The notes under the pieces are model-generated. The model saw only the letters and a program-made list of their open reading frames with translations. It was not told the DNA's origin and ran no database searches. Source: a virus. Taken from it: a DNA stretch of 64,000 nt. Below, piece by piece: positions 2,028 to 54,945 of this stretch (its first letter is position 1; the number at the start of each line of letters is the position of its first letter). Position numbers and translations under genes: made by a program. Where the stretch lies: the IMG/VR virus record IMGVR_UViG_3300015370_000011, positions 1 through 64,000 of that record. One strand, 5' to 3'.

Positions 2028-2045
2028 GTTAAAACTCTCGCTTGG

Positions 2046-37189: not shown

Positions 37190-37195
37190 GCTAGA

Positions 37196-37999
37196 TTATA
37201 CTGTGGTATTTTTGGATTGGGCCAACTCTTTTTCTGTTCTCCTAAGAATCTTTAGATTATGCCGCCTTAGCGAATCAACACCTAATCGCAAATCAGAAAA
37301 TGTGGTTCTGTGGTGATGAAAAACAAACGTACCAAGACTAAGTAATTGTTTATACCCATGATGTCGTAAGCGCATACAAAATTCGTCGTCCTCTCCCAGG
37401 CCAATATTAAATTGTTCATTTAGCAAACCTACTTCATCAAACACTTTTCGTCTGAAGGCGGTACAGAAAAAGGCTAGATTATTTTTTTTGATGTCTAAGT
37501 ACTCTCCATCGTACTTAGCAAGCATCTGCGCGTATGCTGCTTGATTTGGGACGTATCGTGGTAGTGCTGTGCCGAACCGCATGTTTAGGTTGCCTGCTTC
37601 TTGCCACGAAATTTTACTTTGTGTTACTGGCCCAACAGCCCCGATTTCTGGGTTATGCATTAGTGGTTTTATCAGCTTGGTCGCCCATTTCCAATAGACC
37701 TCTGTATCGTTATTCAGCATTATTATATATTCACCAACAGCTTCTTTAATTCCTTGGTTTGTGGCCTTTACGAATCCCATATTATAGGCATTCTTGACCA
37801 CTTTACATCTAACTCGCGGACGTGTAGCCTGTTGTCTAATTATACTAAAAGCGTCAGCGTTAGATCCATTATCAATCCATATGATTTCGTGGGGTAGTTT
37901 TGTATTGGCCCGTATAGATTGTAAACATTTAATTGTCTTTTCTGGTTGGTTTAGAACTGGAATTATAATACTAACCACAGGCTTTGGTTGATCAGACAT
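37196..37999 (-). CDS. Glycosyltransferase family 2
   Basis: SIIIPV, IDNGS, NMGF..ATNQG, LNNDT, GEDDE. Confidence 0.9.
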   Translation of the reverse strand: MSDQPKPVVSIIIPVLNQPEKTIKCLQSIRANTKLPHEIIWIDNGSNADAFSIIRQQATRPRVRCKVVKNAYNMGFVKATNQGIKEAVGEYIIMLNNDTEVYWKWATKLIKPLMHNPEIGAVGPVTQSKISWQEAGNLNMRFGTALPRYVPNQAAYAQMLAKYDGEYLDIKKNNLAFFCTAFRRKVFDEVGLLNEQFNIGLGEDDEFCMRLRHHGYKQLLSLGTFVFHHHRTTFSDLRLGVDSLRRHNLKILRRTEKELAQSKNTTV

Positions 38000-38732
38000 G
38001 CAATGGGCTCCCTACTCGTTGTAGTTCTCTATCTTTGAAAGATCTATATGTATGGCTATCAGAGATCCCCATATGTGTCACTAACGTTTTTGTATTCAAA
38101 TATCCTATCCAATAGCCTGCCTCTCCCGCAGCTTTACTGATTAACCTATCTGATCCATAAATAACACCTTTTGGATGCCCGCCCGCTTTTAGAAACTGTT
38201 CTCTCGGGGATAGACGGCAAACTCCGTTGACCATCCAAAAGTCTGGTTTGTAGCATATGTACATAGTTTTATTATGATCTATTCTGTGGGTTGTTCCTAA
38301 TGGATTCTTATACAGTTTCTTTCCAGATCTAAGTGCGAAAGATTCAGTATTTCCCCAATGCATATCATATCCAAGATACAATAGTTTGTCATGATTAAAT
38401 TGTACGTAGGCATCTACAAGATCCTGTGCAAAATTTTTAGGCACTATAATGTCATCATCTACTTTCAGTATAAAATCGGATTTTGCTTCTTCTGCTAAGA
38501 AGTTTATCGCTTCCAATCCATAATTTTTTTCTCCCGCAAATATTTTTGTTATTCTACAATCCGCCTTTGCGTATTCGTATAACCAGTCATAGGATCCATC
38601 TTCTGAGTGGTTGTCCCAGATTAGAACCTCATATTTTACATCTCCCATTTTACTAATTATATCTGGTATATACGTACTAGATAATTTCAATCTATTATAC
38701 GTCAAAATTAAAATAGAAACTGAAGAGGTCAT
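37992..38732 (-). CDS. Glycosyltransferase family 2
   Basis: ILTYNR, DNHSEDGS, KVDDD. Confidence 0.85.
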   Translation of the reverse strand: MTSSVSILILTYNRLKLSSTYIPDIISKMGDVKYEVLIWDNHSEDGSYDWLYEYAKADCRITKIFAGEKNYGLEAINFLAEEAKSDFILKVDDDIIVPKNFAQDLVDAYVQFNHDKLLYLGYDMHWGNTESFALRSGKKLYKNPLGTTHRIDHNKTMYICYKPDFWMVNGVCRLSPREQFLKAGGHPKGVIYGSDRLISKAAGEAGYWIGYLNTKTLVTHMGISDSHTYRSFKDRELQRVGSPLHV

Positions 38733-38738
38733 GTATAC

Positions 38739-39317
38739 CTACACCCGTATAGGAGATTTCGTAGCTTCTATATTTAAACTAATTAGTATACCGTTTTCTT
38801 TGTCCATATGTGGAATGTATGCCTGTGAATAATCATCAAACCCAGCCAAATCGCCTATAAATACTTTTTTCCAGTCCCAATTCGCTACGTTGTAAAAACC
38901 AGCATCTTTTAATGTCCTTGCCAACAATTTGTAGTCGTATAGCCTTTTGTGGCCAATAGTACAATCTTCAGTCGAGTTCCATATTCCAAAAATTGGCCCC
39001 TGTATTAATTCTACATTCATGTACATGGAATAAACTGAAAATAGGGATACAGCATCCGGTACCGCTACCCGCAAAATACCACCAGGCATCAGTTTAGAAT
39101 TCCAATGTTTCAGCACATTAACTACTTCATCTTTGTCAAAATACTCTATAACATGCGATGCGTATATTAACTGTACACTGCTATCCTCAACCATGCTCAA
39201 ATTTCTAATATCGGCCACATAGTCTATGTGATCATAATCAGACAAATCAACATGTACGTAACCCGGTAAGTAACGCTTTCCACAACCCAAATGTAGCTTT
39301 GTGTCAGCAACCCTCAT
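38739..39317 (-). CDS. Class I SAM-dependent methyltransferase
   Basis: KLHLGCG, ASHVIEY, LMPGGILRVAVPD. Confidence 0.85.
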   Translation of the reverse strand: MRVADTKLHLGCGKRYLPGYVHVDLSDYDHIDYVADIRNLSMVEDSSVQLIYASHVIEYFDKDEVVNVLKHWNSKLMPGGILRVAVPDAVSLFSVYSMYMNVELIQGPIFGIWNSTEDCTIGHKRLYDYKLLARTLKDAGFYNVANWDWKKVFIGDLAGFDDYSQAYIPHMDKENGILISLNIEATKSPIRV

Positions 39318-40411
39318 GTATTGCTCCTTTGCAATTCCTTCAGTACAACTTCACATGTTTTTTGAATATCTGACAGTGGCAGCGTTAGTGAAGACGGCAA
39401 CCACAAAGTACTGTTTATCAAATTACAAATAGGCTCATACACACTTACATTTAGAAATTCGCATCCTTCCCACGGTATTTGTGTATGCAGCGGCGGGTAT
39501 GCATACCTAGAACCTATTTTGTTTCTTGCAAGCTCTGCACATACGCTGTGCCTACTTCCTGCAACTACCAGATCCATTGCCCATGGTGTGTAACAATCAT
39601 TGTTAGGATCATGCACAAAATGCTCATTGCCGAGCAGTTCTTTATACGTACTATACACTTTTCTTTTCATGTTAAGTCTGTTGTGCAAATACCTAAGCTG
39701 TGATCTACCAACCACAGCCTGTAAATCAGTAAATTTGAAGTTGTACCCAATACTGGTATGTATATCCGAACCGGGCTTGTCTCGGCAAAAATCCTTCATC
39801 CCTTCTATTTTATTGTAATATTCTTCGTTGTTTGTCACAATTAGCCCGCCCTGGCCAGTAGTAATTATCTTGTGCGGCGATAACGAGTATACACCAATGT
39901 CGCCAAGTGTGCCCAAATATGTGCCACAAAATTGTGCCCCGAATGATTGACAGGCATCCTCAATTAATATGATCCCGTGTTCTTTACAAAACTCAACCAC
40001 TTTTTGTATGTTGCCACCACGACCATTTATAGAAACAAATATCAACGCCTTATAGTCTTTAGTGTTTTTTATATTATTCAAAACATTAATATTCATACAC
40101 AAGCAGTCGTCTACACCAACCAGTACTGGTTCTGCTCCAGCCAAATACACCGCATTAGCAGTAGCAGCCATAGTATAGTCAGGAACCAATACTCTATCAC
40201 CCGGTTTGATGCCGCATGCCTTCAAAGCCAAAAATAAGCCAATTGTGCCACTTGTTACAGCCGAACAAAATTTGACATGTACTGTATCAGACACTTCCTG
40301 TTCAAATTTTTGAGTTTCCTCAAACTCTGTTAACCACCCCCCGTTTCGCATGTAGTGCTCTACTGATCGTATGTCTTCCTCTGTTATGTGCGGTTCTATT
40401 TGCAATATCAT
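39314..40411 (-). CDS. DegT/DnrJ/EryC1/StrS aminotransferase (perosamine synthase-like)
   Basis: TSGT, EDACQSFG, SLSPHKIITTGQGG (PLP lysine), GYNFK, LWLPS. Confidence 0.9.
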   Translation of the reverse strand: MILQIEPHITEEDIRSVEHYMRNGGWLTEFEETQKFEQEVSDTVHVKFCSAVTSGTIGLFLALKACGIKPGDRVLVPDYTMAATANAVYLAGAEPVLVGVDDCLCMNINVLNNIKNTKDYKALIFVSINGRGGNIQKVVEFCKEHGIILIEDACQSFGAQFCGTYLGTLGDIGVYSLSPHKIITTGQGGLIVTNNEEYYNKIEGMKDFCRDKPGSDIHTSIGYNFKFTDLQAVVGRSQLRYLHNRLNMKRKVYSTYKELLGNEHFVHDPNNDCYTPWAMDLVVAGSRHSVCAELARNKIGSRYAYPPLHTQIPWEGCEFLNVSVYEPICNLINSTLWLPSSLTLPLSDIQKTCEVVLKELQRSNT

Positions 40412-40815
40412 ATTAGTACCCTGTCTTCATCATCATAGGTTACAAGATAGTGTCCAGGTTTTATTTCTAGCATTTTCGTCCCATTTTTCAGTACTTTGTA
40501 ACCAACTCCACCATTGAACAGTACGTATGTATCACCAGATTCAAGGATTCTAACATCTATCACCTTATCGTCTTCACCGAGCGTAGTAACTTCAACTCGC
40601 CCACTTAAGACTACCAAAGCTTCTTGCGTCTTTTGTATAGTTCTATGCCTTTCAATATGTTTATGTGCTCTCATGTTATGATCTGCTCTGTAATTAAAAG
40701 TAAGAACCTGAATGCAGTCCTCCTTATTGGTCAAAATATCCAAACCATCTTTGTAATCAGATAGCCTAATTATTTTAGCCAGCAATCTCTCGTTCTGCCA
40801 TAGTTCCGTATGCAT
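40408..40815 (-). CDS. Cupin-fold sugar-nucleotide protein
   Basis: AHKH...TQEAL...GD...EIKPG; between gmd and the aminotransferase. Confidence 0.7.
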   Translation of the reverse strand: MHTELWQNERLLAKIIRLSDYKDGLDILTNKEDCIQVLTFNYRADHNMRAHKHIERHRTIQKTQEALVVLSGRVEVTTLGEDDKVIDVRILESGDTYVLFNGGVGYKVLKNGTKMLEIKPGHYLVTYDDEDRVLI

Positions 40816-41779
40816 GTGTTTCCTCCTCCATTACGGAATCGATCATTTCTTGTATCAACTGATCTAAGTTTACTGTAGGTTCCCAACCTAGTACGTTTTT
40901 TATTTTTTCCGGATTTCCTCTCAAATCTGGCACTTCTGATGGGCGAGTATATTTTATGTCAAATTTTACGTATCTATTGACATCCAAGTCTAATTTTTCA
41001 AATACTTTATCTAAAAATTCCTTGATTGCATAATGTTCACCAGTTGCTACTACAAAATCATCCGGGTATGCGTGTTCTATAATTTTTATTATGGCAGACA
41101 TGTAATCGCGGCTGTGTCCCCAATCCCTACGTGCTAACAAGTTACCAAGAACAAGATTATGCTGCTTGCCAAGCTTTATGCGCACAGCACCACGAACTAT
41201 TTTCTTAGTTACAAATGTTTCACCGCGCCTCTTTGACTCGTGGTTCATCAATATGCCATTGCATGCAAATAATCCATAGGATTTTCTGTACAGCCTAGTC
41301 ATGTGATACGCAGCCAATTTTGCTATCCCATACGGACTTTGTGGATTCATTTTACTGTTTTCATCTTGCAATGGTGGTGTGTCACCAAACATCTCAGAAG
41401 AGCTGGCTTGGTAAAAACGAGTTGTTTTTTGCAGCCCCATTCTTCTAATGGATTCCAATATGCGTGTAGGTCCGATTGCATTAACATCAACCGTATATAC
41501 TGGAATATCAAATGATACACGAACATGAGACATACTTGCAAGATTGTAAATATAGTCGGGTTTTAATTCGTAAATAATACTGTCCAATCCATTACCCAAG
41601 TCACCATACACCAGATTTATTTTTTCTTCCGGGAAAAGCAAATGATCAATCCTAGATGTAGTAATAGTACTCGACCTTCTAACAACACCATATACTTGAT
41701 GTCCCCTTTCAAGCAGAAGCTCTGCCAAATAACTACCGTCTTGACCAGTTATCCCTGTTACCAAAGAAATAGTTGACAT
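40775..41779 (-). CDS. gmd: GDP-mannose 4,6-dehydratase
   Basis: TGITGQDGSYL, SHVRVSF, YQASSSE, SPYGIAK, NHES.RRGETFVTKKI, RDWGH. Confidence 0.95.
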   Translation of the reverse strand: MSTISLVTGITGQDGSYLAELLLERGHQVYGVVRRSSTITTSRIDHLLFPEEKINLVYGDLGNGLDSIIYELKPDYIYNLASMSHVRVSFDIPVYTVDVNAIGPTRILESIRRMGLQKTTRFYQASSSEMFGDTPPLQDENSKMNPQSPYGIAKLAAYHMTRLYRKSYGLFACNGILMNHESKRRGETFVTKKIVRGAVRIKLGKQHNLVLGNLLARRDWGHSRDYMSAIIKIIEHAYPDDFVVATGEHYAIKEFLDKVFEKLDLDVNRYVKFDIKYTRPSEVPDLRGNPEKIKNVLGWEPTVNLDQLIQEMIDSVMEEETHAYGTMAEREIAG

Positions 41780-42439
41780 CTATCCCTCCCGTTTTTCTAA
41801 TACGAGTACTGGGTTTTCCACATTGCGCTTATCGCTAAGTATTTTGTATTTCTTTATATCTATATTAGAAATCTGAAAAGAATTAAACTGCACTCTTCTA
41901 TTCCAAATTTTACTGCTACTGTACGCATTTCTCAATTCACTCCTAATACCAAACATGAGTATGGCTTTTTTGGTTAAAAAGCTGCGTATCGAATCTAAGT
42001 ATGACTGTATCGGCCAATGAAATCCTATCGCTTTAAAGCTATAACATAAATCAATAGTATCCAACGGTGGAAGTTGGCCCATTTGCGCATTTAGTATCTT
42101 CATTTTATCGTGCCTAATACCATTGGTTAGACAGAAATCCTTAGTCGCTTTCAGCGAGTTATAATAATCCGTACCCAATACATAATGAATACCTGCTACT
42201 TGCTTATCCCCAGAATCCCCGTCCAATAAGTAAAAGGTAGAGTCCCATAAGTATTTTTTATACAAGTATACAGTAACTCTACCTATACCGCACCCTATCT
42301 CTAAACACGCTTTTGGTTTTATTTTGTCTAAAAACGTATTAGCTTCTTGTGTATCTCGGCATTCGGTATAGTCATCCAAATTATTGTTGCACTGAAGATT
42401 GGCGTATTTTTTTGCCGTGTTTGGTATACATATTTCCAT
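41780..42439 (-). CDS. Class I SAM-dependent methyltransferase
   Basis: LEIGCGIGR, DLCYS...GFHWP. Confidence 0.75.
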   Translation of the reverse strand: MEICIPNTAKKYANLQCNNNLDDYTECRDTQEANTFLDKIKPKACLEIGCGIGRVTVYLYKKYLWDSTFYLLDGDSGDKQVAGIHYVLGTDYYNSLKATKDFCLTNGIRHDKMKILNAQMGQLPPLDTIDLCYSFKAIGFHWPIQSYLDSIRSFLTKKAILMFGIRSELRNAYSSSKIWNRRVQFNSFQISNIDIKKYKILSDKRNVENPVLVLEKREG

Positions 42440-43455
42440 CAGTGTACACCATTCTCATTGATAATTTTAAGAAGTTGCTGCGCTCTATTGGTGTAGGTAT
42501 GCTCAGTTAGAATTTTCTTTTGCCCATTTAAAGCTATACTTTTCCTAACCCCTACGTGCTTCAAATAGTAGTTAAATCTATGTTTGAAAGTGGGCCAATC
42601 TTCATAAAACGACAATTCCTTATTATGTGCAAACACCTGTTCAATACCCGGGTTATGATCTACCATTAAAAAGCCGCCAGTACCCATAACTAAAAACACC
42701 CGATCATTTAAATACATACGCGCTAAATTTACATGATTTGAAATATTAATTCTGGCTTTACTAAAGAGATTTGGTAAAGAGCGCCAATCGGTATGCATAC
42801 CTTTGTAGTACGGTTTTAGTTTTTCATCTCCTTGTATAAAAATAGTCCCATCAGATTTTTTTACTTGGTTATTACTAATCCATGTATTACTTCCGTATAT
42901 TTCCAAAGATAAACCTTGTTTTGCAATCCAAAGTAATATATCTTTTCTTGGTATGGCGGTGCATGCATATGGCGTGCCCACGAATATAACATCTATTTTA
43001 TCTTTTTCATTAATATTACATTCTTGCCTTACTTCGCTATCCCATGCAGGCCAGAACAAATAAGGCTTAATACCAGCTTTTATATACACATTAAATTTTT
43101 CTGTAGAGCAACTTAGTGCAATATCATATCCTCTATACATACCCAGAGAAATAAACTTAGGAATAAAAAAAGGATCATCTTGCGACCAGTAAATATTTAA
43201 CTTAGTTATTTTACGAATAGCTATATTAGTCTCCGGGCATATAAATCTACCCCATTTAAATCCTTTTGAACAGATATATACATCAGGCTTATGCTCTTTT
43301 ATTTGGTTTAGCAACACGTTGCTATATGTTTTCCAATCGGAATCAGATTGTATATACTGTACCCACGGAGCGGCACCCTGAACTACCTGATGTCCGGCTA
43401 TTCGTAGTGTATTTACCAACTGATGGTATCCGCCACCATTAAAGAATATTTTCAT
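42439..43455 (-). CDS. CgeB-like GT-B glycosyltransferase
   Basis: DDP, DVIFVG, KARINIS, NDRVF..MGTGGF, EHTYTNRA. Confidence 0.8.
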   Translation of the reverse strand: MKIFFNGGGYHQLVNTLRIAGHQVVQGAAPWVQYIQSDSDWKTYSNVLLNQIKEHKPDVYICSKGFKWGRFICPETNIAIRKITKLNIYWSQDDPFFIPKFISLGMYRGYDIALSCSTEKFNVYIKAGIKPYLFWPAWDSEVRQECNINEKDKIDVIFVGTPYACTAIPRKDILLWIAKQGLSLEIYGSNTWISNNQVKKSDGTIFIQGDEKLKPYYKGMHTDWRSLPNLFSKARINISNHVNLARMYLNDRVFLVMGTGGFLMVDHNPGIEQVFAHNKELSFYEDWPTFKHRFNYYLKHVGVRKSIALNGQKKILTEHTYTNRAQQLLKIINENGVH

Positions 43456-44163
43456 CTATATTCCTTTTGACTCAAATAGCTGTTTATTTTTACGTATAAG
43501 TGCGTGATTAAAATAGTTTTTATTCCTATCGTGCGGTAAATGAATCATAGATGTCAAGGTATCTACCCAAACAATTGATAATCCTAACGCCCTAGCCCGC
43601 AGCTCCAGATCTTTATCCTCATATCCCCACCCGTCGTATCGTTCATCGTGTCCACCAATCTGTCTAAGTTTATCGGTAGAGAAACACTGACAGCATCCCT
43701 CACCATGCGGCTCTCTTTGCGGATTCTTTTTTACCCAATTTAAATACATGTGGTATTTCATATTATTTATCTGATGTGGAGGAAAACTCGGCGGCTTTTT
43801 AGCAAAATAGGTTTTGCATTTAACAAATACGTTTTTATTGCTAGCATTAGATAAAATATTGAAAAAATTTGGTTGAAAGATCTGATCTATATCAGTCAGA
43901 CACGTAAATTCAGTTTTTACTGCATCTATACCTAAGTTTAATGCTTTAGCTTTATTAAACTTGGGGGCTACATCAACCCTAACAACACGCAACCATTTAT
44001 ATTCATTTTCAAGCTCTTTCATATTGATTGTACTGCCATAATCAATTAGTATGCATGGTACCGTTGGCGTACAGGCATTTATCGAGGATAAGCAATATGC
44101 AGAATTTAAGCGTCTATCCTTACAAGCAATTACAGCAGTGATTTTATTAGTTTTATTCTCCAT
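43456..44163 (-). CDS. GT-A glycosyltransferase (GT2 with GT7-like C-terminus)
   Basis: DYGS, FNKAKALN, DID, GGHDERYDGWGYED. Confidence 0.85.
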   Translation of the reverse strand: MENKTNKITAVIACKDRRLNSAYCLSSINACTPTVPCILIDYGSTINMKELENEYKWLRVVRVDVAPKFNKAKALNLGIDAVKTEFTCLTDIDQIFQPNFFNILSNASNKNVFVKCKTYFAKKPPSFPPHQINNMKYHMYLNWVKKNPQREPHGEGCCQCFSTDKLRQIGGHDERYDGWGYEDKDLELRARALGLSIVWVDTLTSMIHLPHDRNKNYFNHALIRKNKQLFESKGI

Positions 44164-44166
44164 TTA

Positions 44167-44778: not shown

Positions 44779-44832
44779 TTCTCCTAAGTGATGTATTTAT
44801 ATTAGTATCAGATAGGAAGCAGACAAATATGC

Positions 44833-47110: not shown

Positions 47111-47130
47111 ACTTCCTCTAGTGCTTAATG

Positions 47131-47253
47131 TTATTGTTGAAGTACGGTATAATTGGGGTTTATTATATTACTCGTATTAGCCATATAAAAAAACTTGTCT
47201 CTATTTGCTATACAAGTACCTTGTCCTGGAGAAGCTGGGGATATTTTACTCAT
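47131..47253 (-). pseudogene. 40-aa ORF, possible gene remnant
   Basis: ATGA-coupled to the FkbM gene; MSKISPASPGQGTCIANRDKFFY...QQ*. Confidence 0.3.
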
Positions 47254-47960
47254 TTTATATATCCAGATTTGATTGGGTGTTCAGTATGAATTAATTGCTT
47301 ATGTGGGATTATTTGTGCGTTTTTAACAACATCAACATCTTCCTTTTTACAATAAAATACATTGTTTCCAGTTTTTCTGGCAAATAAATACGCGGCAGAT
47401 GCTAGATACTTTTGCAATTTTATTTCCCTATTTTTATCAATTGCTTCTAAAACAAGAATGCGTGGTTTATATTTGCATAGAGTAAATCCCCGCAGTACAT
47501 CCAATTCAGTTCCTTCGACATCAATAGATACCACATCAACTTTATGTATTCCTACTTCTTCTAGAATGGAATCTACAGTACGCATTGGTACGGGTATTTT
47601 TTTATACCCATAAAATGCTTTTGGATAGGCGCTTTTAAAATAGCTTTCCATAGAACCATCTAAAGTAGACAATGTGCCCAACTTATTAGCAAATAAGATA
47701 GCGAAATCTCTGTCTTGAAGAGAAACAGCAGCGTGTATCACAGTAGCAGTGGGTCTATTCTTTCTAAGAATGCTAATATAATCCGGATGTGCCTCGGCAC
47801 AAACACCACTCCACCCAGCTAATTCAAAGCTATATGAGTTACTAAATCTTTTTCCATCTAATGCACCAACATCTAAATACGTACCGATATATGAATTATC
47901 AAATATAGACCACAGTATACAATCTTCCCCGTTTTGCCCGTAGAATTTGTCTGTTTTCAT
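47250..47960 (-). CDS. FkbM-family methyltransferase
   Basis: YGQNGED, LDVGALDG...SNS, SIDVEGTE. Confidence 0.9.
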   Translation of the reverse strand: MKTDKFYGQNGEDCILWSIFDNSYIGTYLDVGALDGKRFSNSYSFELAGWSGVCAEAHPDYISILRKNRPTATVIHAAVSLQDRDFAILFANKLGTLSTLDGSMESYFKSAYPKAFYGYKKIPVPMRTVDSILEEVGIHKVDVVSIDVEGTELDVLRGFTLCKYKPRILVLEAIDKNREIKLQKYLASAAYLFARKTGNNVFYCKKEDVDVVKNAQIIPHKQLIHTEHPIKSGYIK

Positions 47961-48793
47961 TTGTTCGTCCTCTTTTTTATGTGTTCTTTCTTAGAATCCA
48001 CCCGTATATCTCGTATATCTATGTAAGTTTGTTTATTCGGATTTCCTTTTTTAATTGCTAACAATCTATTATTGACTTTCATCGGGTTTTTATATGTGGT
48101 GAGCCACACATCTCTGCGTTCCCATAGCATATACTTTGAATATCCTTTTGGATGCCACATATGATATAAATTATGCTTAAATTTAAATTCTCTGCCAAGG
48201 ATCTTTAATGCTCTCCATGCTATATCATTATCATTTCCTCCCCATCCTAAATAGTTCTCATTATATTCACCAAGTTTGTTATAAAAAAAATTTTTTGTTA
48301 TACAAACGGCAAAACCAGCGTAATCTAATGTACCTGAACAGTATACTTCAGCATTCGATATGTACTCATTTTCTATGTCTTTATTGGTATGGACTTTATC
48401 TGAATTTTCTGGTGTTAAACAGTACATATTATTCCAAGCAATGAAGTATGGAGCATCGAAATTGTATACAGATTGTAGATAATTATCGGTGCACACTATA
48501 TCAATATCATAAAACAAAAATTTGTCTCCATCGGAAATGCGTGCGCCTACGTTTGCCATCCATGGTTGATTAAAATGGTTTTCTCCAGGATCTCTAATTT
48601 TTAAATATTTGTCTATACCGGGTACATTTTCGTAGAGCGGGCCACCAGTCCTGCTTCCACCGAGCATTGCGTCTATCTGTTCAATTAAAACAATTTCAAA
48701 ATCTTTCCAAGATTGCTTACGCAAAAAGGTAATACATGTTTCTACATGTTTTTTTCTATTTTCACCAGTTATAGGGATTATTACAGAAAGCAT
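47957..48793 (-). CDS. GT-A glycosyltransferase (GT2/GT7-like)
   Basis: SVIIP, FNQPW..NVG, YDID, NENYLGWGGND, HMWH. Confidence 0.8.
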   Translation of the reverse strand: MLSVIIPITGENRKKHVETCITFLRKQSWKDFEIVLIEQIDAMLGGSRTGGPLYENVPGIDKYLKIRDPGENHFNQPWMANVGARISDGDKFLFYDIDIVCTDNYLQSVYNFDAPYFIAWNNMYCLTPENSDKVHTNKDIENEYISNAEVYCSGTLDYAGFAVCITKNFFYNKLGEYNENYLGWGGNDNDIAWRALKILGREFKFKHNLYHMWHPKGYSKYMLWERRDVWLTTYKNPMKVNNRLLAIKKGNPNKQTYIDIRDIRVDSKKEHIKKRTNK

Positions 48794-49324
48794 TCAACGT
48801 ACTTTTTCTAACACGAAGTGTCTGCTATCTTTTATAGGAACTTGTCTGACTAGAACATTACTACTTATAAACTTATTCACAGCCTTTTTAACTTCCCAAT
48901 AATTGTAATCGTCCCCGACTAAGCATCCACCGGTTTTTACCTTGGTGACAAACATATTTAAATCATTCAAAACAAAAGCGTAAGAGTGATTACCATCAAT
49001 GTACACCCAATCAATGTATTCATCTTCAAACATATTTACTGCATTATGACTCATTTTTCTTATAATCGTTACATTACTACACAGATTAAATCGATTAATC
49101 ACGCTTCTGAAAACGGTATCCATATCCTCTTGATTTTTTGCTATTAATCCACCATAATATCTATCCGTGTACACGGGCATATACTCCCATGGGTCTATTA
49201 AAAACAATCGTTTTGGTTCCATTTCGTTCAATATTTGCTGGGAGAAACAACCATCCCATACCCCTATTTCGACGCATATAGGGTTTCTGACGTGATGTTT
49301 TAATATACCTTTCCTACAATCCAT
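48794..49324 (-). CDS. Class I methyltransferase (Methyltransf_24-like)
   Basis: VEIGVWDG, IDPW, YIDGNHSY, GDDY. Confidence 0.85.
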   Translation of the reverse strand: MDCRKGILKHHVRNPICVEIGVWDGCFSQQILNEMEPKRLFLIDPWEYMPVYTDRYYGGLIAKNQEDMDTVFRSVINRFNLCSNVTIIRKMSHNAVNMFEDEYIDWVYIDGNHSYAFVLNDLNMFVTKVKTGGCLVGDDYNYWEVKKAVNKFISSNVLVRQVPIKDSRHFVLEKVR

Positions 49325-49326
49325 TT

Positions 49327-50229
49327 CTACTCACCAAAAATTTGGACGAATCTATTTAAAATTCTGTTTTTGTCAGTATACCGAGTAGGTTTATTGTCTG
49401 TATACCAGGGTTGCGACAAACATTTTATATATAAATCTGGATCCGTATCTAATTGAACAACTCTATCAATAACGGCATCTATAGATCCATAATCGTAGTA
49501 ATTAACAAAACTCGTGGGATTAAAATCTTCATTAACCGCAGGATTTCCCCAATAGATAGATATACAATTAGCCAAAAAGTCGTGATATATACGCTCTGAA
49601 GTATATCCCAATGATTCTTCATTTTCAAACGAAATAACGAACTTATACTTGCTTAGAAAATCAATTTTTAAATCATATTTGCTATAGAAATCATTTCTCA
49701 AATGCTGATCTAATTCGGTAAGTGTCTTGACTCCCCCAATCATTGGTACATTGTTAAACACTCTTCCTGGGGCGTCCACCTGCTTATATCTAGACAGCCT
49801 CTTGAAAAATTTATTTCGAAACGTAACTGAACCATTGCTGCATATAAATGCGCAAAACTTTGTTTTGCTAGCTAGTATGCTAGCTGCATTATAGCTATTA
49901 GACTTAATTAGGTTTTCACCAGCACCCAAACGCACATAGTTTGGCATTCGCATATATCGATCATTATTCGTTTCTTCTTCTAAGGCAAAACTAAAAGCCC
50001 AGTCACATTCAGGCATTATTGGTTTTATATTCTCTGTTCCAAAAAAGATACTAGTATGCACATTTTTTATCATATGTCTTTGTTTATGCTTAGAATACAG
50101 AATATACTTCGGCTTTTCTTTTATAAATGTATATTTATCCATAATGTATTTCATGTTTTGAAAAAAAATATTACTATCAACTTTTGGATGCCATACCCAC
50201 GTAGCCATATCTATCGTTTTTCTATGCAT
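49327..50229 (-). CDS. GT10 alpha-1,3-fucosyltransferase-like (second paralog)
   Basis: YKFVISFEN...GYTSERI...IYWG; clearly similar to 45565..46455. Confidence 0.85.
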   Translation of the reverse strand: MHRKTIDMATWVWHPKVDSNIFFQNMKYIMDKYTFIKEKPKYILYSKHKQRHMIKNVHTSIFFGTENIKPIMPECDWAFSFALEEETNNDRYMRMPNYVRLGAGENLIKSNSYNAASILASKTKFCAFICSNGSVTFRNKFFKRLSRYKQVDAPGRVFNNVPMIGGVKTLTELDQHLRNDFYSKYDLKIDFLSKYKFVISFENEESLGYTSERIYHDFLANCISIYWGNPAVNEDFNPTSFVNYYDYGSIDAVIDRVVQLDTDPDLYIKCLSQPWYTDNKPTRYTDKNRILNRFVQIFGE

Positions 50230-50917
50230 AATGATATAGCTTCCAGTGAGAAAACTTGGATCTAGAATTAAGTAAATAAGGTTTCCTACCGCGAAGCCAT
50301 AAAAAGAATATGAAAGATCTATAGATTATTCTGTCGAAATCTATCAGTTTTTTAGATGGATGCTTAGTAGGATCATACCAAAGCTGCTTATCAGGTGCCT
50401 CTACAGGTAACAAGTCCTTTGATTTTGAGTTGGATATAAATGGTACCTCCACTAGCATATCAAATTCTTTTACATTAAATTCTCTAAAAATTTTTATTAG
50501 TTGGTTGGTAGCCAATCGGGTTTTATGACCACATCCATCATACCAAAAAAATTTTAATTTTTTACTTAGCAGATAAGCATCAAAATCAAAGGATGGTCCT
50601 TCAATAAACACAAAATCAGTAGCTGTATTTAAAGCAGATTTTATAGAATCTTTAATTCCTTGCAAACTATCCAAGTGCTCCAAAAAATGACTCATAGTAA
50701 CGAATCTGACTGATTTTCTGGGTAGCACAACTCTAGTAACGTCCCCACAAATGCATTGTATTCCGGAATCAGATAACCTTTTCGATAAATCCTTATTTAT
50801 TTCAATAGCAAGCCCATTCTTGCCGCCTAATTTTTTGCGCGCAAAATTTATACATCCCCCTCGACCGGACCCGAAGTCAATGAAATCACACCCTTTTAGT
50901 ATCTTTTGTATATTCAT
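50222..50917 (-). CDS. Class I SAM-dependent methyltransferase
   Basis: IDFGSGRGG, HFLEHL. Confidence 0.75.
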   Translation of the reverse strand: MNIQKILKGCDFIDFGSGRGGCINFARKKLGGKNGLAIEINKDLSKRLSDSGIQCICGDVTRVVLPRKSVRFVTMSHFLEHLDSLQGIKDSIKSALNTATDFVFIEGPSFDFDAYLLSKKLKFFWYDGCGHKTRLATNQLIKIFREFNVKEFDMLVEVPFISNSKSKDLLPVEAPDKQLWYDPTKHPSKKLIDFDRIIYRSFIFFLWLRGRKPYLLNSRSKFSHWKLYHYA

Positions 50918-51016
50918 GTGATATCACCACTAGAATCACCCAGTTAAATATGTTATAAGTACCTTTTTCATGCTAAAAAGTACCACGATTCATTCGCTAT
51001 ATATTAACGATTGTTT

Positions 51017-51931
51017 CTAATACGCAAGTAACACCGCCACTAATTGTCGGGTTGCGCTGTCCCAATTATATCTTTCTTGGCTTGCTGTTTTTAGCCCCTC
51101 TTTTATTAAATTTCTTCGTAATATTTTATCTCCAAGGACCCGTTTTATTCCAGCAGCGATTCCAGATACGGATCTTGGAACCCTAATTGCATTTATTTCA
51201 GGAACAATAAAATCCCTACTCCCCCCATCGTCAGTGCTAACAACAGTACAGCCGCACGCCATAGCTTCTAACGGGGGCATACTAAAACCCTCAACCTGCC
51301 CTGCGGAAACATAACAAGTGCATTTACTGTATAATCTGTACATTTGTTCCTGCGGGGTATTCAACCCTTCCATTTTCAATACTTTTACGCCTGGAAGTGA
51401 TTTGATAGCTTGTTCTATTAACATCGTTCCTTTCCACGGTCTACTCGATCCATAATAGAGCACATCATATTCTTTTACCACCATTGGTGCATACTTAAAA
51501 TGCTCCGGGTTGATACCGCCGGGAATAATGGGTATATCCCCATATTTAGGTAGAAACTTTTTTATGTAGGTAACTGTAAACGTAGAATTGGCAAGTAATG
51601 TAAATCCGGCCTTCAATGCTTTTACTGGTATTGTTGGCTCTTTGTACAGAGCTTCTGGAGCGAGTACCCAGAAGAATTTTTTAGTTGCGTTAGCTTTTGA
51701 AGCCCACATATACTGATCAGCTAAATTAAATATAACTGCATCATAGGATGTTTGTACGAGCTTAGACAATTTCTTTACTGGTGCTGTACAAGATAACCAT
51801 TTACACGGTGCTCCAGTCGGCGTGTAAATCGTAACCTGATGTCCGAATAAAATCAATCTATTGGCTGATTCAATAATTCGGCGGATTCCTCCACAGAGAT
51901 GCAGCCCTGGTTCTATAAATGCTATATTCAT
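51017..51931 (-). CDS. Glycosyltransferase family 4
   Basis: GG, KG, EGFSMPPLEAMACG. Confidence 0.9.
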   Translation of the reverse strand: MNIAFIEPGLHLCGGIRRIIESANRLILFGHQVTIYTPTGAPCKWLSCTAPVKKLSKLVQTSYDAVIFNLADQYMWASKANATKKFFWVLAPEALYKEPTIPVKALKAGFTLLANSTFTVTYIKKFLPKYGDIPIIPGGINPEHFKYAPMVVKEYDVLYYGSSRPWKGTMLIEQAIKSLPGVKVLKMEGLNTPQEQMYRLYSKCTCYVSAGQVEGFSMPPLEAMACGCTVVSTDDGGSRDFIVPEINAIRVPRSVSGIAAGIKRVLGDKILRRNLIKEGLKTASQERYNWDSATRQLVAVLLAY

Positions 51932-52929
51932 TGAATCGCCAGTTTTAGTACGCCTTCAAACTTAGAAATCGTATCATCCCATGTAAATCTTTTAGCTAAA
52001 TCAAATCCGTTTTCCGATAATTTACTATATAATTTTTTATCATTCAATAGCGTCTTGATTGTTTCCGCCGCTTGAACCTTGTTAGATATTATCATACAAT
52101 TTTTTTCGTGTATCAAATATTCTTCTAATCCTCTACTTGGATACCAGATAACAGGAACACCACAAGCCATTGCTTCTAGTATAGGCAGGCCAAAACCTTC
52201 ATTTATAGATGTAGAAATCCAAAGGTGGCATGCATTGTAAATTAGTGGTAACATCGCTTGTGGTGGGTTTGATATTATCGAATAAGGTAGACATAGCGTA
52301 TCAAACATAGGAACGTTTTCTACGCTAGAACCGCCGAAGAGTATGCAATATGGCCTGATCTTTTTCTTCGTGACCAATTTTGAGATCGTATTTATAAATA
52401 GATTAATATTTTTTTCGGGGGCTGGGTGATACAATGTACCAATTGTTACTACTGGGCTCTTACTCACAGGTTGCACACGAAACGCAGAATCAATCCCAGG
52501 AGGGATTGTAAACACTTTTGTATGTCCCAGTTTTGAAGCAATATCAGATAGCCATTTAGAAGTAGCAATCACGGCTGTATAGTTTTTTGCAATCGTATCC
52601 ATTTCAGTAACAATACGCTGAGATCCAAACCCTTGTAAGAATAAGATATGTCTACTCGCTTCTGGAATACCAATATGCTTTTCATCCGCATAATGAATAA
52701 GGATATCCACTGGATCATACTTTTCATCCGGAGTAGTTAAATCATATAGTTTGAAGTGTGGATCTGATCTAAACCACGGAATTAGCTTTTCTTGGTATTT
52801 ATGTAGAAAAACGGATACGGAATACCCACGCTGACCTAGCATGTCAGCGATGGTGAATATTACCTTGGTCCCTCCGCTTATGCGCGCATGTGGGCAAAGA
52901 AAACCGATTCTCATTTCCTGGTACTCCAA
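51928..52929 (-). CDS. Glycosyltransferase family 4
   Basis: SGG, EKN, EGFGLPILEAMACG; true start possibly MRIGFL. Confidence 0.9.
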   Translation of the reverse strand: MEYQEMRIGFLCPHARISGGTKVIFTIADMLGQRGYSVSVFLHKYQEKLIPWFRSDPHFKLYDLTTPDEKYDPVDILIHYADEKHIGIPEASRHILFLQGFGSQRIVTEMDTIAKNYTAVIATSKWLSDIASKLGHTKVFTIPPGIDSAFRVQPVSKSPVVTIGTLYHPAPEKNINLFINTISKLVTKKKIRPYCILFGGSSVENVPMFDTLCLPYSIISNPPQAMLPLIYNACHLWISTSINEGFGLPILEAMACGVPVIWYPSRGLEEYLIHEKNCMIISNKVQAAETIKTLLNDKKLYSKLSENGFDLAKRFTWDDTISKFEGVLKLAIQ

Positions 52930-53540
52930 TACAATTTTTTAGCACACTCTCGTTCTTTTTCTATATCTATTTTGGAGGCTTTTACACTCGCTTCTCCATG
53001 ATGGAATACAAATGCGTCCTGCCTCCAATAAGAGTAAAAACCGTGCGTGGTTGCCCGATCAATTAAATCACTTTCTTGCCCATACAATGTATACCTTTCG
53101 TCGAATCCGTTAAGTAAATCCCATATGGATTTTTTGAATAGGATGCAAAATCCGCTTATTGGGTTTTTCATTTTTATTACTTTACCACGATGTTTTTCAG
53201 ATTCCTGATAGGTAGAAACCCCTCGCTGGGGGCTGTGGCACATATTCGTGGATGGCCCTATGAATCCACAATCTTGTATAGAAATGCTTGATTCGTACAT
53301 TCTCTCTAGCCAATGGGGATAAGCTTCCGTATCATTATTCAATAGGCATATAAAAGTACAGGGACTAGCCTTGATAAGCCCGTTCCAAGCTTGCGTAAGA
53401 GTCAATCCACTATTGTAATTATCAAAAAAGGTAAGTAGGTATGGATGAACAGTATTCTTTCTAACCGCCTTTAGACAGGCTATTTCCTTGTCTGGAAGAG
53501 CGTATCCGATAACTATGATGTTAACGGTTGCTGGATGCAC
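52911..53540 (-). CDS. Glycosyltransferase family 2
   Basis: AWN, LLNNDT, GFDE...YGQESD, HHG. Confidence 0.85.
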   Translation of the reverse strand: MHPATVNIIVIGYALPDKEIACLKAVRKNTVHPYLLTFFDNYNSGLTLTQAWNGLIKASPCTFICLLNNDTEAYPHWLERMYESSISIQDCGFIGPSTNMCHSPQRGVSTYQESEKHRGKVIKMKNPISGFCILFKKSIWDLLNGFDERYTLYGQESDLIDRATTHGFYSYWRQDAFVFHHGEASVKASKIDIEKERECAKKLYWSTRK

Positions 53541-54034: not shown

Positions 54035-54040
54035 TGTGGT

Positions 54041-54607: not shown

Positions 54608-54610
54608 TGA

Positions 54611-54925
54611 CTATACCTCCATGCAAGCAACTTGTACAGGATCTTTGTCGTATAGTTCTACTATATCATGCATTTTTTTAATTATGGTAGTTACTTTTGA
54701 ATCTAGATCTGCAAGGATATCCAATATAGAATTATCTTTTTTAGTAAGTTTAGCTTTTTCTATCAGGATTTGTCTAAAGTATCCACGCATGACTGCTCCG
54801 ATATCCGCATAATAGTATTTATTTATCCAATTGTTTGCTTCTTTTATTTCCAGTACAAAACAAGTCGCAGATACAGAAATCCTATATTTGGCATCTAGCT
54901 CAACCAATGGGATATACTTTAGCAT
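54611..54925 (-). CDS. Hypothetical protein
   Basis: Intact ORF in the operon. Confidence 0.55.
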   Translation of the reverse strand: MLKYIPLVELDAKYRISVSATCFVLEIKEANNWINKYYYADIGAVMRGYFRQILIEKAKLTKKDNSILDILADLDSKVTTIIKKMHDIVELYDKDPVQVACMEV

Positions 54926-54945
54926 GTTTTTTACTACTTTGACAA

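Follow-up and report, generated by a model that had tools for sequence, protein, structure and literature searches.

A conserved glycan gene toolkit, predicted to be cytoplasmic, in an uncultured groundwater myovirus lineage

We interpret an island of 21 genes as the bulk of a glycan toolkit that is conserved, self-contained and probably cytoplasmic in an uncultured groundwater myovirus lineage. Large sugar clusters in lytic phages (P-SSM2, S-SKS1, jumbo and huge phages) are already published; what is new here is the conservation of the glycan gene set within a lineage. Since related phages keep the glycan genes, the sugar product presumably matters to the virus. Our analysis points to the phage's own particle proteins as the most likely acceptor, although we put this at somewhat short of an even chance.

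Results

The window analyzed is a 64-kb stretch of a linear contig record of 121,016 bp, rated about 66% complete by CheckV. The ORF list of the window contained 21 minus-strand ORFs at 37196-53540, all co-oriented and tightly packed: 17 of the 20 internal junctions overlapped or had gaps of no more than 6 nt, and the remaining gaps were 54, 139 and 99 nt. The ORF list, Pfam and, for one methyltransferase, a fold match agreed with the class counts of the original prediction, namely, ten glycosyltransferases (nine firm and one weak), six methyltransferases (three firm, two sub-threshold and one by fold only), two sulfotransferases, a GDP-mannose 4,6-dehydratase (Gmd), a cupin and a DegT aminotransferase. 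The flanks were also as predicted, with a helicase (35750-37189) on one side, RuvC (53513-54034) on the other, and a glycosyltransferase (55365-56375) and an RmlA-like gene (60577-61314) outside the island. The glycan genes made up about one-eighth of the known genome of this phage.

The island is genuine phage DNA and no assembly chimera. Contigs from run X1 covered 35000-47587 and 47574-54999 with zero differences, X3 contigs (36459-37374 and 52005-54742) bridged both island borders, and the X2 read depth was continuous, at 266-320 in the flanks and 145-305 inside the island; the bridging contigs came from other groundwater samples. The expectation that the DNA would be viral on both sides therefore held when coverage was checked. 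The GC content of the island (36.4%, versus 40.8% for the rest of the contig; 30-38% in p7-p18, and 30-36% in all of these except p11) could speak for host DNA fused to phage DNA through misassembly. However, strand and GC skew ran on unbroken from the flanks into the island, and the same genes adjoin phage core genes in L007 and G001/G002, which are from other data sets. The bridging contigs and the L007 and G001 orthologs rule out a chimera, and we regard the chance of such an artifact as practically negligible.

We then consider the sugar-nucleotide genes. The p6 protein (40775-41779) matched the Gmd model TIGR01472 at 381 bits, narrowly missing the 415-bit equivalog cutoff, and PF16363 at 386 bits; the RmlB model reached 100 bits. 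It was 64% identical in G001 and up to 73% identical to Gmd of L007, and its predicted product is GDP-4-keto-6-deoxymannose. The p4 protein (39314-40411) is a putative DegT/DnrJ/EryC1 sugar aminotransferase (PF01041, 245 bits; LegC/PseC models below cutoff) whose best solved relative was the Kdo8N transaminase 5k8b (4e-45), with perosamine synthetase (6.5e-37) and QdtB (1e-36) further down. The small cupin p5 (40408-40815) had weak Cupin_2 and WbuC matches and 990 representatives at E ≤1e-3, including homologs fused to a sugar C-methyltransferase and to GT2. Its AF2 model (pLDDT 96.4) matched only generic cupin folds (TMq ≤0.66), and p5 is probably an NDP-keto-sugar isomerase or epimerase. The order Gmd-cupin-DegT was common to the window phage, L007 and G001. 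GDP-perosamine, which the original prediction had brought up, is not established: a conserved cupin lies between Gmd and DegT, and the DegT protein is nearer to the Kdo8N transaminase (4e-45) than to perosamine synthetase or QdtB (both about 1e-36). The RmlA-like sugar-1-phosphate nucleotidyltransferase at 60577-61314, on the plus strand, matched PF00483 at 168 bits and TIGR01207 at 191 bits, the latter below cutoff. Its G001 ortholog (48%) lies beside RmlC and RmlB-like genes just upstream of p8-Gmd, and the full RmlA/B/C/D set of G001 would yield dTDP-rhamnose.

From sequence matches, we predict 10 to 11 glycosyltransferases that are soluble and represent at least four families. The GT2 proteins p1 (37196-37999; PF00535, E 7e-24) and p2 (37992-38732; PF00535, E 7e-14) had counterparts in L007 (58%, adjoining the helicase, and 53%, respectively) and in G001 (55% and 44%). 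Two GT-A enzymes, p9 (43456-44163) and p15 (47957-48793), matched both Pfam GT2 and Glyco_transf_7C; p9 was 50% identical in G001/L016 and p15 was 56% identical in G001. The CgeB-like GT-B enzyme p8 (42439-43455; PF13524 [Glyco_trans_1_2], E 7e-22) had no sequence match among solved structures, and its G001 ortholog (56%) lies directly upstream of Gmd. Both p12 (45565-46455; PF00852, E 1e-17) and p17 (49327-50229; PF00852 plus the FucT N-terminal domain PF18025 [FucT_N]) belong to GT10, the fucosyltransferase family, with G001 orthologs at 45% and 44%; p17 matched 3 of 50,697 phage records, from S-SKS1 and LR756508 only. The GT4 proteins p19 (51017-51931; PF00534, E 1e-18; 52% in G001) and p20 (51928-52929; PF00534, E 2e-20) fall in Pfam class GT4/GT1. 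The best NCBIfam model for p20, SdgA (54 bits), was far under its cutoff, and its best solved relatives, 7ec1/7ec7 (2e-10), covered the C-terminal half only. The weak member is p21 (52911-53540), a short GT2-like protein with sub-threshold GT2/7C matches (E 0.007-0.009), a 54% identical ortholog in G001, and a match to the p1-like GT2 of L007. The extra GT-B enzyme at 55365-56375 (minus strand; phrog_7162, E 2.5e-47) had a G001 ortholog (47%) that closes cluster A, and further homologs in phages of Streptomyces and Arthrobacter and in phapecoctaviruses.

Among the methyltransferases, Pfam cutoffs were passed by p14, p16 and p18 and missed by p3 and p7. The p14 protein (47250-47960) is of the FkbM family (PF05050, E 5e-21, and TIGR01444) and also occurs in L007 and G001. 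The Methyltransf_24/TylF-like O-methyltransferase p16 (48794-49324; PF13578, E 2e-16, and PF05711) had relatives in other viral loci and no match in G001, and the class I enzyme p18 (50222-50917; Methyltransf_11, 24.7 bits against a cutoff of 21.2) had a 36% ortholog there. The class I SAM methyltransferase p3 (38739-39317) and the methyltransferase-like p7 (41780-42439) had Methyltransf_23, 11 and 25 matches below cutoff; p3 has two copies in L007 (44-55%) and a 54% counterpart in G001, in which p7 had no match. The p13 protein (46448-47110) had no Pfam match and is assigned by fold only as CmcI/rhamnosyl-O-methyltransferase-like, with an Atlas structure at TM 0.83 to a PF04989 cluster; its homologs were 31% (LR756508) and 48% (G001) identical.

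The two sulfotransferases, p10 (44167-44778; Sulfotransfer_2, PF03567, 36.9 bits, cutoff 22) and p11 (44833-45564; Sulfotransfer_3, PF13469, 31.2 bits, cutoff 27), contain sequence motifs that we take to be PAPS-loop-like. The p10 protein carries an IPKTAGMS loop and had homologs in 5 of 50,697 phage records and at 45% identity in G001. The p11 protein had 1092 homologs, and its AF2 model (pLDDT 95) has a sulfotransferase fold nearest, in Foldseek, to the polyketide-pathway sulfotransferase CurM (TMq 0.62) and to tyrosylprotein sulfotransferases (0.44-0.53). The two sulfotransferases of the original prediction stood, but the modeled fold of p11 suggests that its acceptor could be protein tyrosine or a small molecule and not a sugar.

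That p11 might sulfate tyrosine or a metabolite bears on an alternative in which the island acts on a phage protein that is secreted or exported, on a small molecule or on a free oligosaccharide. The contig encodes two signal-peptide proteins (2834-5731, with a CBM_4_9 match, and 6497-7489), and methylated deoxy-amino sugars are commonly found in natural-product glycosides. The jumbo-phage review PMC7824862 proposes secondary-metabolite clusters in cyanophages. However, the contig has no PKS, NRPS or terpene aglycone genes, and ten transferases imply an oligosaccharide unusually large for a metabolite. Moreover, the glycan genes are conserved, while 2834-5731 matched G001 over 12% of its length and 6497-7489 had no match. 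We consider this alternative improbable.

The related phage contig G001 (136 kb, about 74% complete) matched 81 of the 135 window-genome ORFs and keeps 19 of the 21 island genes at 35-64% identity in two blocks, with gene order rearranged between blocks and kept inside them. The 19 G001 ORFs with an island best match had a mean identity of 46.9%, which takes in one RmlB-like paralog at 26%, and the 46 others had 40.0%; the glycan genes are at least as conserved as other shared genes. L007 keeps the order methyltransferase-FkbM-Gmd-cupin-DegT-methyltransferase-GT2-GT2-helicase at 42-58% identity. A 188-amino-acid protein with no family match (54041-54607, minus strand) travels with the glycan genes; its G001 ortholog (36%) lies between those of p21 and the 55365-56375 glycosyltransferase. 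This conservation, with the internal order kept, points to selection for one defined product and not to the fast turnover described for cyanophage clusters in PMC7824862. The conservation would also fit a conserved host-directed function.

The position of the island in the replication module, between helicase and RuvC, would suit transferases that glycosylate modified bases, as in T-even phages and 5hmC-glycan systems. Phages are known to have DNA glycosyltransferases with either a GT-A or a GT-B fold, along with secondary transferases (bioRxiv 10.1101/2023.12.21.572611). However, the G001 glycan genes are not one block beside replication genes. The thymidylate-synthase-like hydroxymethylase family PF00303 gave 0 matches, both DNA methyltransferases are of the N6/N4 type and not C5, and Pfam scans of the contig ORFs gave no TET/JBP-type dioxygenase. 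To our knowledge, neither sulfation nor multiple O-methylation has been reported for DNA glycans. DNA, one of the acceptors first proposed, lost ground with these prerequisite genes not found; DNA glycosylation is unlikely, and base hypermodification by this island is a long shot.

As predicted, the island proteins lacked transmembrane segments: 0 of 21 reached a Kyte-Doolittle 19-residue mean of 1.6. No ORF with at least four hydrophobic segments was seen on the window contig or G001. Wzx, Wzy_C, Bac_transf, WecA-type, ABC2_membrane and ABC_tran gave 0 matches each in a six-frame search of the whole 121,016-bp contig, and none of Wzx, Bac_transf, ABC2_membrane and Wzy_C was found in G001-G004, four viral records that are either related or similar; the completeness rating of G003 is 100%. 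The predicted absence of membrane assembly genes thus holds for the sequenced DNA; since the contig and G001 are about 66% and 74% complete, such genes could lie in unseen DNA. The step from no transmembrane segments to a soluble acceptor did not stand, because the transferases that lengthen a lipid-linked intermediate are, as a rule, soluble or peripheral themselves, and the host could provide the initiating transferase and exporter.

Discussion

We favor, tentatively, glycosylation of particle proteins over remodelling of the host envelope, which is doubtful but a serious contender. In the latter, soluble enzymes would act at the inner membrane face on host lipid-linked intermediates of O-antigen, capsule, S-layer or exopolysaccharide units, using the host initiating transferase and exporter, and the altered surface would, for example, block superinfection or stop progeny from sticking to infected cells. 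Lipid-linked O-antigen and capsule pathways, whose extending transferases have no membrane segments either, typically also use GT2, GT4, GT10 and CgeB-like enzymes. The island heads a leftward unit with replication genes, which would fit early expression, and the contig has a weak GT9 (heptosyltransferase) signal at 112518-113504. A hypothesis of this kind has been published for the closest known clusters, those of P-SSM2 (PMC1079782), S-SSM7/S-SM2 (PMC3037559) and jumbo phages (PMC7824862); PMC1079782 and PMC7824862 read such clusters as modifying host LPS or capsule. Against host-envelope remodelling, the serotype conversion known from phages takes one to three genes, whereas here about 24 are retained between phages with only about 40% identity in their shared proteins, and the rapid turnover that an arms race over a surface trait should bring is not apparent. 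Carrier-lipid, flippase, polymerase and exporter genes were absent from the five records searched, the contig showed neither an integrase nor lysogeny genes, and an LPS target cannot be taken for granted.

Glycosylation of particle proteins draws on the viral origin of the island, its conservation in the lineage and the all-soluble enzymes without membrane genes. In this route, the cupin and DegT would turn the product of Gmd into an amino-6-deoxyhexose. One defined oligosaccharide would be assembled by the transferases and tailored by the methyl- and sulfotransferases. The acceptors would be capsid, decoration or tail proteins, glycosylated in the cytoplasm either ahead of particle assembly or in its course, a route that would resemble mycobacteriophage, chlorovirus and mimivirus glycosylation. 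The co-orientation of the window-phage island with replication genes and not with late structural genes counts against it, and structural proteins among the contig ORFs had no Ser/Thr-rich tails or tracts (1 of 135 ORFs had a 20-residue window with at least 50% Ser plus Thr). Further support for particle proteins as acceptor comes from G001, in which the transferase/methyltransferase/sulfotransferase block abuts TerL and is co-oriented with TerL and the structural module, from the capsid C-terminus, and from recurrence in LR756508. The major capsid proteins of the window phage and G001 are 59% identical overall, yet their final 10 residues, ending in KTS, are the same in both. Mycobacteriophages carry glycans at the C-termini of capsid and tail-tube proteins (quoted in PMC12619734), and the conserved C-terminus is a candidate glycan site that may simply be structural.

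The likeness to giant-virus glycosylation that had been proposed agrees with the parts list. The claim that the island goes far beyond tailed-phage systems gives way to published clusters: "24 LPS genes" in P-SSM2 (PMC1079782), the S-SSM7/S-SM2 sugar clusters (PMC3037559) and the jumbo-phage polysaccharide systems reviewed in PMC7824862. The annotated P-SSM2 cluster has the plan of the island, with Gmd, epimerases, six glycosyltransferase families and no membrane genes annotated. The unrelated 484-kb phage LR756508 shares the mix of Gmd, GT10, two sulfotransferases and a p13-like methyltransferase, and its island is larger than that of the window phage.

Composition of the glycan island

The 21 open reading frames (ORFs) of the original prediction were all found, on the minus strand between positions 37196 and 53540, and are numbered here from p1, beside the helicase, to p21, beside RuvC. 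Overlaps or gaps of at most 6 nt occur at 17 of the 20 junctions, and the island occupies 16,345 bp, or 13.5% of the known contig. Nine of the ten proposed glycosyltransferases scored above the Pfam cut-off (p1, p2, p8, p9, p12, p15, p17, p19 and p20), while the tenth, p21, is GT2-like by a weak match only. Among the six proposed methyltransferases, p14, p16 and p18 scored above the cut-off, p3 and p7 fell below it, and p13 had no Pfam match; the Atlas model of p13 resembles the rhamnosyl-O-methyltransferase/CmcI cluster (TM 0.83). The assignment of p6 as Gmd was upheld by 381 bits on TIGR01472 (cut-off, 415) versus 100 bits on the RmlB model.

Both proposed sulfotransferases scored above their family cut-offs (p10, 36.9 bits on PF03567; p11, 31.2 bits on PF13469). 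Motifs resembling phosphosulfate-binding loops are visible in the two sequences, and the predicted fold of p11 is that of a sulfotransferase (pLDDT 95). By family score, loop and, for p11, modeled fold, p10 and p11 are thus predicted to be PAPS-dependent sulfotransferases. Sequence searches against solved structures returned nothing for p8 or p10 and weak matches for p11 (CurM, E 0.059), p5 (E 0.026) and p9 (E 0.007). A likeness of p20 to SdgA/SdgB/GtfA was confined to the donor-binding half, far below the cut-off, and was set aside as an acceptor clue.

The island in the phage genome

The 121,016-bp contig is a single viral piece that is myovirus-type along its entire length. The window is its first 64 kb. 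The contig, a linear record without a terminal repeat, has an estimated completeness of 66% (CheckV). A minus-strand arm (0.2-56.4 kb) carries HNH endonucleases, a tail protein, ribonucleotide reductase, two N6/N4 DNA methyltransferases, SbcCD, RecA, a family-A polymerase, DnaB, primase, a UvsW-like helicase, the island, RuvC, three small unassigned ORFs and an additional glycosyltransferase. A plus-strand arm, from 57 kb, encodes a metallopeptidase, a DNA methyltransferase, a sigma factor, an RmlA-like enzyme, a WYL protein, terminase, portal, protease, capsid, sheath, tube, baseplate and fibres and, at the contig end, an RNA ligase and an NAD-dependent ligase.

The nearest isolated phages are remote (terminase, ~31% identity; polymerase, ~32%), and the island had no megablast match among 50,697 phage records. 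The helicase alone had zero matches in IMG/VR; a helicase alignment found one related contig there, L007, as its sole match, and found zero in the JGI metagenomes. The closest GTDB loci for Gmd were in Actinomycetota metagenome-assembled genomes (MAGs; ~50%), the top named match for LigA was a single Chloroflexi MAG (53%), and the named relatives of p11 were in Planctomycetota, Chloroflexota, Verrucomicrobiota and Aminicenantes. Streptomyces and Arthrobacter phages encode homologs of the additional glycosyltransferase (55365-56375). No tRNA genes were found, and none of 19 proteins matched a PADLOC defence family. Counts of promoter-like sites (73 observed versus 79.7 +/- 9.0 expected) and terminator-like sites (12 versus 11.8 +/- 3.1) were uninformative. 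At the start of the contig are three paralogous HNH/endonuclease VII-like genes in tandem (228-989, 976-1800 and 2046-2840).

The original prediction had asked whether the island might be a chimeric assembly of host DNA. Island sequence was present in groundwater metagenomes from five studies. In the metagenome run X1, contigs covered 35000-47587 and 47574-54999 with zero differences, and in X3, separate contigs ran across each border, helicase/p1 on one side and p20-p21/RuvC on the other. In X2, read depth was 266-320 over the flanks and 145-305 inside the island. X1 and X2 are possibly source samples, and X3 belongs to the same study as X2. L007, from another data set, carries the order MT-FkbM-Gmd-cupin-DegT-MT-GT2-GT2 directly adjoining the orthologous helicase, DnaB and primase. 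By coverage, bridging contigs and this independent relative, the island is viral on both sides and is not a chimera; we regard a mis-assembled island as extremely improbable.

Apparent joints in these runs, such as 41218 to 52148, were dismissed, as they rest on 22-26 matching letters. The GC content of the island is 36.4%, versus 40.8% for the remainder of the contig. The dip lies mainly in p7 to p18 (41780-50917; 30-38%, and 30-36% for all except p11), with p1 to p6 and p19 to p21 at 36-41%, so the central part may have had a different history. The depth in X2 falls to 146-259 over 45.7-50.3 kb, with variant contigs, which may reflect strain variation.

Conservation of the island in related phages

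An alignment of p11 relatives searched against IMG/VR gave 44 loci. Two of these, L016 and L017, are records of one phage with p19-p18-p17-p15-p14-p13-p12-p11-p10-p9 in unchanged order, adjoining a terminase 47% identical to that of the window phage. Among the other loci, two had five island-type genes, one had seven matching places, and the remainder had four or fewer. The full record behind L017, G001 (136,432 bp; CheckV, 74%), matches 81 of the 135 ORFs of the window genome (capsid, 59% identity; sheath, 54%) and 19 of the 21 island ORFs, the exceptions being p7 and p16. The mean identity of the 19 G001 ORFs best matching island proteins is 46.9%, versus 40.0% for the 46 other shared ORFs. 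From this retention and these identities, the glycan genes behave like core genes of the lineage.

The island genes of G001 are split into two blocks with internal order kept. Block A (51.2-69.4 kb) comprises p9 to p21 plus orthologs of the ORF at 54041-54607 and the glycosyltransferase at 55365-56375; it abuts the terminase in the same orientation as the structural module. Block B (103.7-112.9 kb) comprises RmlC, an RmlB-like dehydratase, two small membrane ORFs, RmlA, a WYL protein, p8, Gmd, cupin, DegT, p3, p2 and p1. The p1-p6 block is also kept in L007. We conclude that the glycosyltransferase at 55365-56375, RmlA (60577-61314) and the ORF at 54041-54607 belong to the same system as the island.

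G001 encodes RmlC, an RmlB-like enzyme and RmlD besides RmlA (L072:3673-5187, L069:9838-10800; RmlD at 49.8-50.8 kb of G001), a full dTDP-rhamnose route. RmlA is present and RmlB, RmlC and RmlD are absent in the window contig. The missing genes may lie in its absent third, the contig being probably truncated, or they were lost. Immediately upstream of RmlA, at 59836-60575, are two small membrane ORFs whose position is kept in G001, one of 114 amino acids with one strong hydrophobic segment and one of 132 with a signal-like N terminus and a C-terminal anchor; they may be lysis proteins or members of the sugar system.

Chemistry predicted from the enzymes

The product of Gmd is GDP-4-keto-6-deoxymannose, and the order Gmd-cupin-DegT is identical in all three phages (window, L007 and G001). 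It had been proposed that Gmd and the aminotransferase together yield GDP-perosamine. Gmd is indeed present; the solved relatives of DegT (p4), among them Kdo8N transaminase (4e-45, the best), perosamine synthetase (6.5e-37) and QdtB (1e-36), do not single out perosamine synthase, so GDP-perosamine is only a possible product.

The family of the p5 cupin is large (990 representatives at E<=1e-3), and its Atlas clusters are viral for about half. Fusions of some of its proteins to an NDP-sugar C-methyltransferase or a GT2 place the family in nucleotide-sugar tailoring. The HxH of p5 may resemble that of FdtA. Foldseek with the confident p5 model returned generic cupins, with no FdtA/QdtA-type ketoisomerase among the listed matches, and the cupin profile matched only generic cupins among solved structures (E 0.014 or worse).

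No Fcl/GMER gene was found on the contig, so the two GT10 enzymes would use host GDP-fucose or a phage-made GDP-sugar. Pfam scans of the contig ORFs showed no PAPS-synthesis gene. The closest folds to p11 were CurM (TMq 0.62) and tyrosylprotein sulfotransferases (0.44-0.53), so a sugar acceptor for p11 is assumed here. Sulfotransferases are rare among sequenced phages: relatives of p10 were found in 5 and relatives of p11 in 0 of the 50,697 records.

Search for membrane-assembly and DNA-modification genes

The original prediction reported neither membrane segments in the island proteins nor genes for membrane assembly. None of the 21 proteins has a 19-residue hydrophobic window of >=1.6, and ORFs with four or more hydrophobic segments were found neither in the contig, where no protein exceeds three, nor in G001. 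Six-frame searches of the whole contig were made for Wzx, Wzy_C, Bac_transf, WecA-type, ABC2_membrane and ABC_tran, with control genomes giving positives. In the 66%-complete contig there were 0 matches for an initiating phosphoglycosyl transferase (PF02397, PF00953) or for a flippase, polymerase or ABC exporter (PF01943, PF04932, PF01061, PF00005). Wzx, Bac_transf, ABC2_membrane and Wzy_C were each found in none of four related or similar viral records (G001-G004), of which G003 is rated 100% complete, yet is a different phage. The reported absence was thus borne out for this contig and these four records. Bacterial Wzx/Wzy- or ABC-dependent O-antigen and capsule loci have the same families of sugar-nucleotide, extension and tailoring enzymes as the island; however, they also have an initiating transferase and a flippase/polymerase or ABC exporter, none of which was found in the island phage sequence or G001-G004.

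DNA was among the acceptors originally proposed. DNA glycan systems require a source of hydroxymethyl bases (bioRxiv 10.1101/2023.12.21.572611). A ThyA-like hydroxymethylase (PF00303) had 0 matches in the contig. The phage DNA methyltransferases are of the N6_N4 type, so no C5-methyltransferase plus 5mYOX/TET route is seen on the contig, and Pfam scans of the contig ORFs reported no dioxygenase. With a hydroxymethyl-pyrimidine source absent from the contig, we consider DNA a very improbable acceptor.

Acceptor of the glycan

The lack of membrane segments does not discriminate between the acceptor readings. We tentatively favor the virion, or the phage's own proteins, as the acceptor, while rating this below an even chance. 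Several observations point to phage proteins: about two dozen genes are retained with internal order kept between relatives whose shared proteins are ~40% identical; carrier and export genes were found in none of the records; block A of G001 lies beside the structural module; and the capsid protein ends in an invariant decapeptide. The window phage and G001 have exactly the same last ten residues in this protein (contig 75291-76424), with KTS at the end, while the residues right before them differ and the whole proteins are 59% identical. No Ser/Thr-rich tails were found in the search for acceptor clues.

Remodelling of the host envelope is a serious competitor, though we doubt it somewhat more. 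It is the literature's standing hypothesis, the enzyme families are compatible with it, the window-phage island is co-oriented with replication genes, and the genomes are incomplete. The missing carrier and export genes and the position of block A are what we count toward phage proteins instead. Some other soluble or exported product is unlikely. The original interpretation of a glycan made in the cytoplasm on a soluble acceptor is therefore supported in part, with the acceptor inferred.

In mycobacteriophages Che8 and Corndog, the C termini of capsid and tail-tube proteins are modified by phage-encoded transferases (Freeman et al. 2023, as quoted in PMC12619734). Like the island, these systems consist of soluble phage-encoded glycosyltransferases and methyltransferases that work in the cytoplasm, and the island fits this type by its soluble phage-encoded glycosyltransferases with or without methyltransferases. 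The mycobacteriophage systems, in contrast, have few genes and are not known to include any for sugar-nucleotide synthesis or sulfotransferases; they are the sole experimentally shown model for the reading favored here. Chloroviruses and mimivirus encode enzymes for sugar nucleotides (Gmd or others) along with methyltransferases and cytosolic transferases, and with these they build glycans of methylated 6-deoxy and amino sugars on capsid or fibril proteins, using no membrane pathway. Unlike the island phage, they have eukaryotic hosts and belong to an unrelated virus lineage; the likeness is one of parts list only. We know of no sulfation in their glycosylation.

A more specific form of the phage-protein reading is that phages of this lineage cover their particle proteins with a large, defined oligosaccharide containing rhamnose and a GDP-derived amino-6-deoxyhexose, sulfated and multiply methylated, and that some two dozen phage enzymes assemble it wholly in the cytoplasm. 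This is possible, and we hold it a little less firmly than the phage-protein acceptor as such. If true, bacterial viruses would have an equivalent of the glycosylation known from chloroviruses and mimivirus, and a sulfated virion glycan would be shown for the first time in a phage. A virion target would extend complex glycan coats beyond giant viruses and mycobacteriophages to environmental myoviruses, with a bearing on particle stability, adsorption, grazing and recognition. A host-envelope target would mean that a lytic phage spends an eighth of its genome re-dressing the cell. With either target, the cupin family with its 990 representatives, the GT10 enzymes without an Fcl on the contig and the compact sulfotransferases are candidates for new sugar chemistry.

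Two phage proteins in the window (2834-5731 and 6497-7489) have signal-peptide-like hydrophobic N termini. The first, of 965 amino acids, hits a tail-protein PHROG, gives a weak match to a carbohydrate-binding module, and is covered by G001 over only 12% of its length; the second, of 330 amino acids, has no G001 match. A 328-amino-acid ORF at contig 112518-113504 (L003:11518-12504) shows weak GT9 heptosyltransferase signals at both ends (TIGR02201, E 4.5e-5; PF01075, E 0.066) and nothing relevant among solved structures by sequence. Its 49% identical G001 ortholog (PF01075, E 0.023) directly adjoins a tail-fibre gene. This ORF could be a further transferase, perhaps acting on the fibre.

Comparison with other phage sugar clusters

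Reports of large sugar clusters in lytic phages go back to 2005, and we know of none for which a glycosylated target has been demonstrated. The clusters of P-SSM2, S-SSM7, S-SM2 and S-SKS1, like the island, are large blocks in lytic tailed phages with Gmd or other dehydratases/epimerases and many glycosyltransferase families. The proposed role of the P-SSM2 lipopolysaccharide genes is alteration of the host surface (PMC1079782), and the similar clusters in S-SSM7 and S-SM2 are "not known" to be functional (PMC3037559). In a survey of jumbo phages, clusters of up to 15 genes combine dehydratases, cupin isomerases and nucleotidyltransferases with transferases from at least eight families; their presence, sporadic and polymorphic, is taken there as a sign that outer polysaccharides diversify (PMC7824862). 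The S-SKS1 island and the annotated P-SSM2 cluster are consistent with this picture. Cyanomyovirus and jumbo-phage clusters sometimes include a cupin, as the island does, and lipid-carrier and export genes are not annotated in them either.

In having several glycosyltransferase families and dehydratase/epimerase genes in a lytic tailed phage, the island matches the clusters of the P-SSM2 type. Its Gmd shares 47% identity with the P-SSM2 enzyme, and a GT10 shares 28% with that of S-SKS1; beyond these two, no sequence similarity to P-SSM2/S-SKS1-type clusters was detected. Unlike those clusters, the island has two sulfotransferases and six methyltransferases and is not sporadic, being kept in deeply diverged relatives (19 of 21 genes in G001; p1-p6 in L007). 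Its phage is not a cyanophage but a groundwater myovirus of at least 121 kb, with 13.5% of the known genome given to the island. The island is therefore set apart from known clusters by core-like conservation, heavy methylation and two sulfotransferases. The lineage is an unusually clean case, with a self-contained, all-soluble set that is part of the conserved genome in deeply diverged relatives and includes rare sulfotransferases.

The island had been described as much more elaborate than the few-glycosyltransferase systems known from tailed phages. Precedents exist in P-SSM2, S-SKS1, the jumbo phages and a larger island in LR756508, a 484-kb uncultured, unrelated phage. Within ~10 kb, LR756508 combines a Gmd and a GT10 with two to three Sulfotransfer_2 genes, some in tandem, a Methyltransf_24 gene and a p13-like methyltransferase. 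The island has this rare enzyme combination too, with identities of 22-45% between the proteins of the two. Unlike the island, LR756508 also has six GT29 sialyltransferase-like genes, NeuB, a cytidylyltransferase, GT25 and a GMER-like epimerase, with a thymidylate synthase nearby. The LR756508 island (L008, LR756508.1:299870-328198), of ~25 kb and larger than that of the window, includes two GT25 genes and a GT4 gene, and no published description of it was found in the literature on phage fucosyltransferases and sulfotransferases or on huge phages and sialic acid.

Putative inteins in core and sugar genes

Intein or homing-endonuclease insertions occur in many core genes (window 16345-19644, 25130-28246 and 28256-31333; contig 67257-69764 and 80148-81542). 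LAGLIDADG/Hom_end domains sit amid the RecA pieces of RecA, the portal gene contains an Intein_splicing domain, and the family matches of ribonucleotide reductase and of the polymerase are each split into two separated pieces. A LAGLIDADG ORF of 464 amino acids is also present. In L007, the Gmd ortholog (1262-3406, plus strand) is a single open frame of 715 amino acids with an in-frame insert of ~381 amino acids directly after the conserved FYQAS motif, where the window Gmd is uninterrupted. The insert looks like an intein that interrupts an auxiliary sugar gene in its active-site region.
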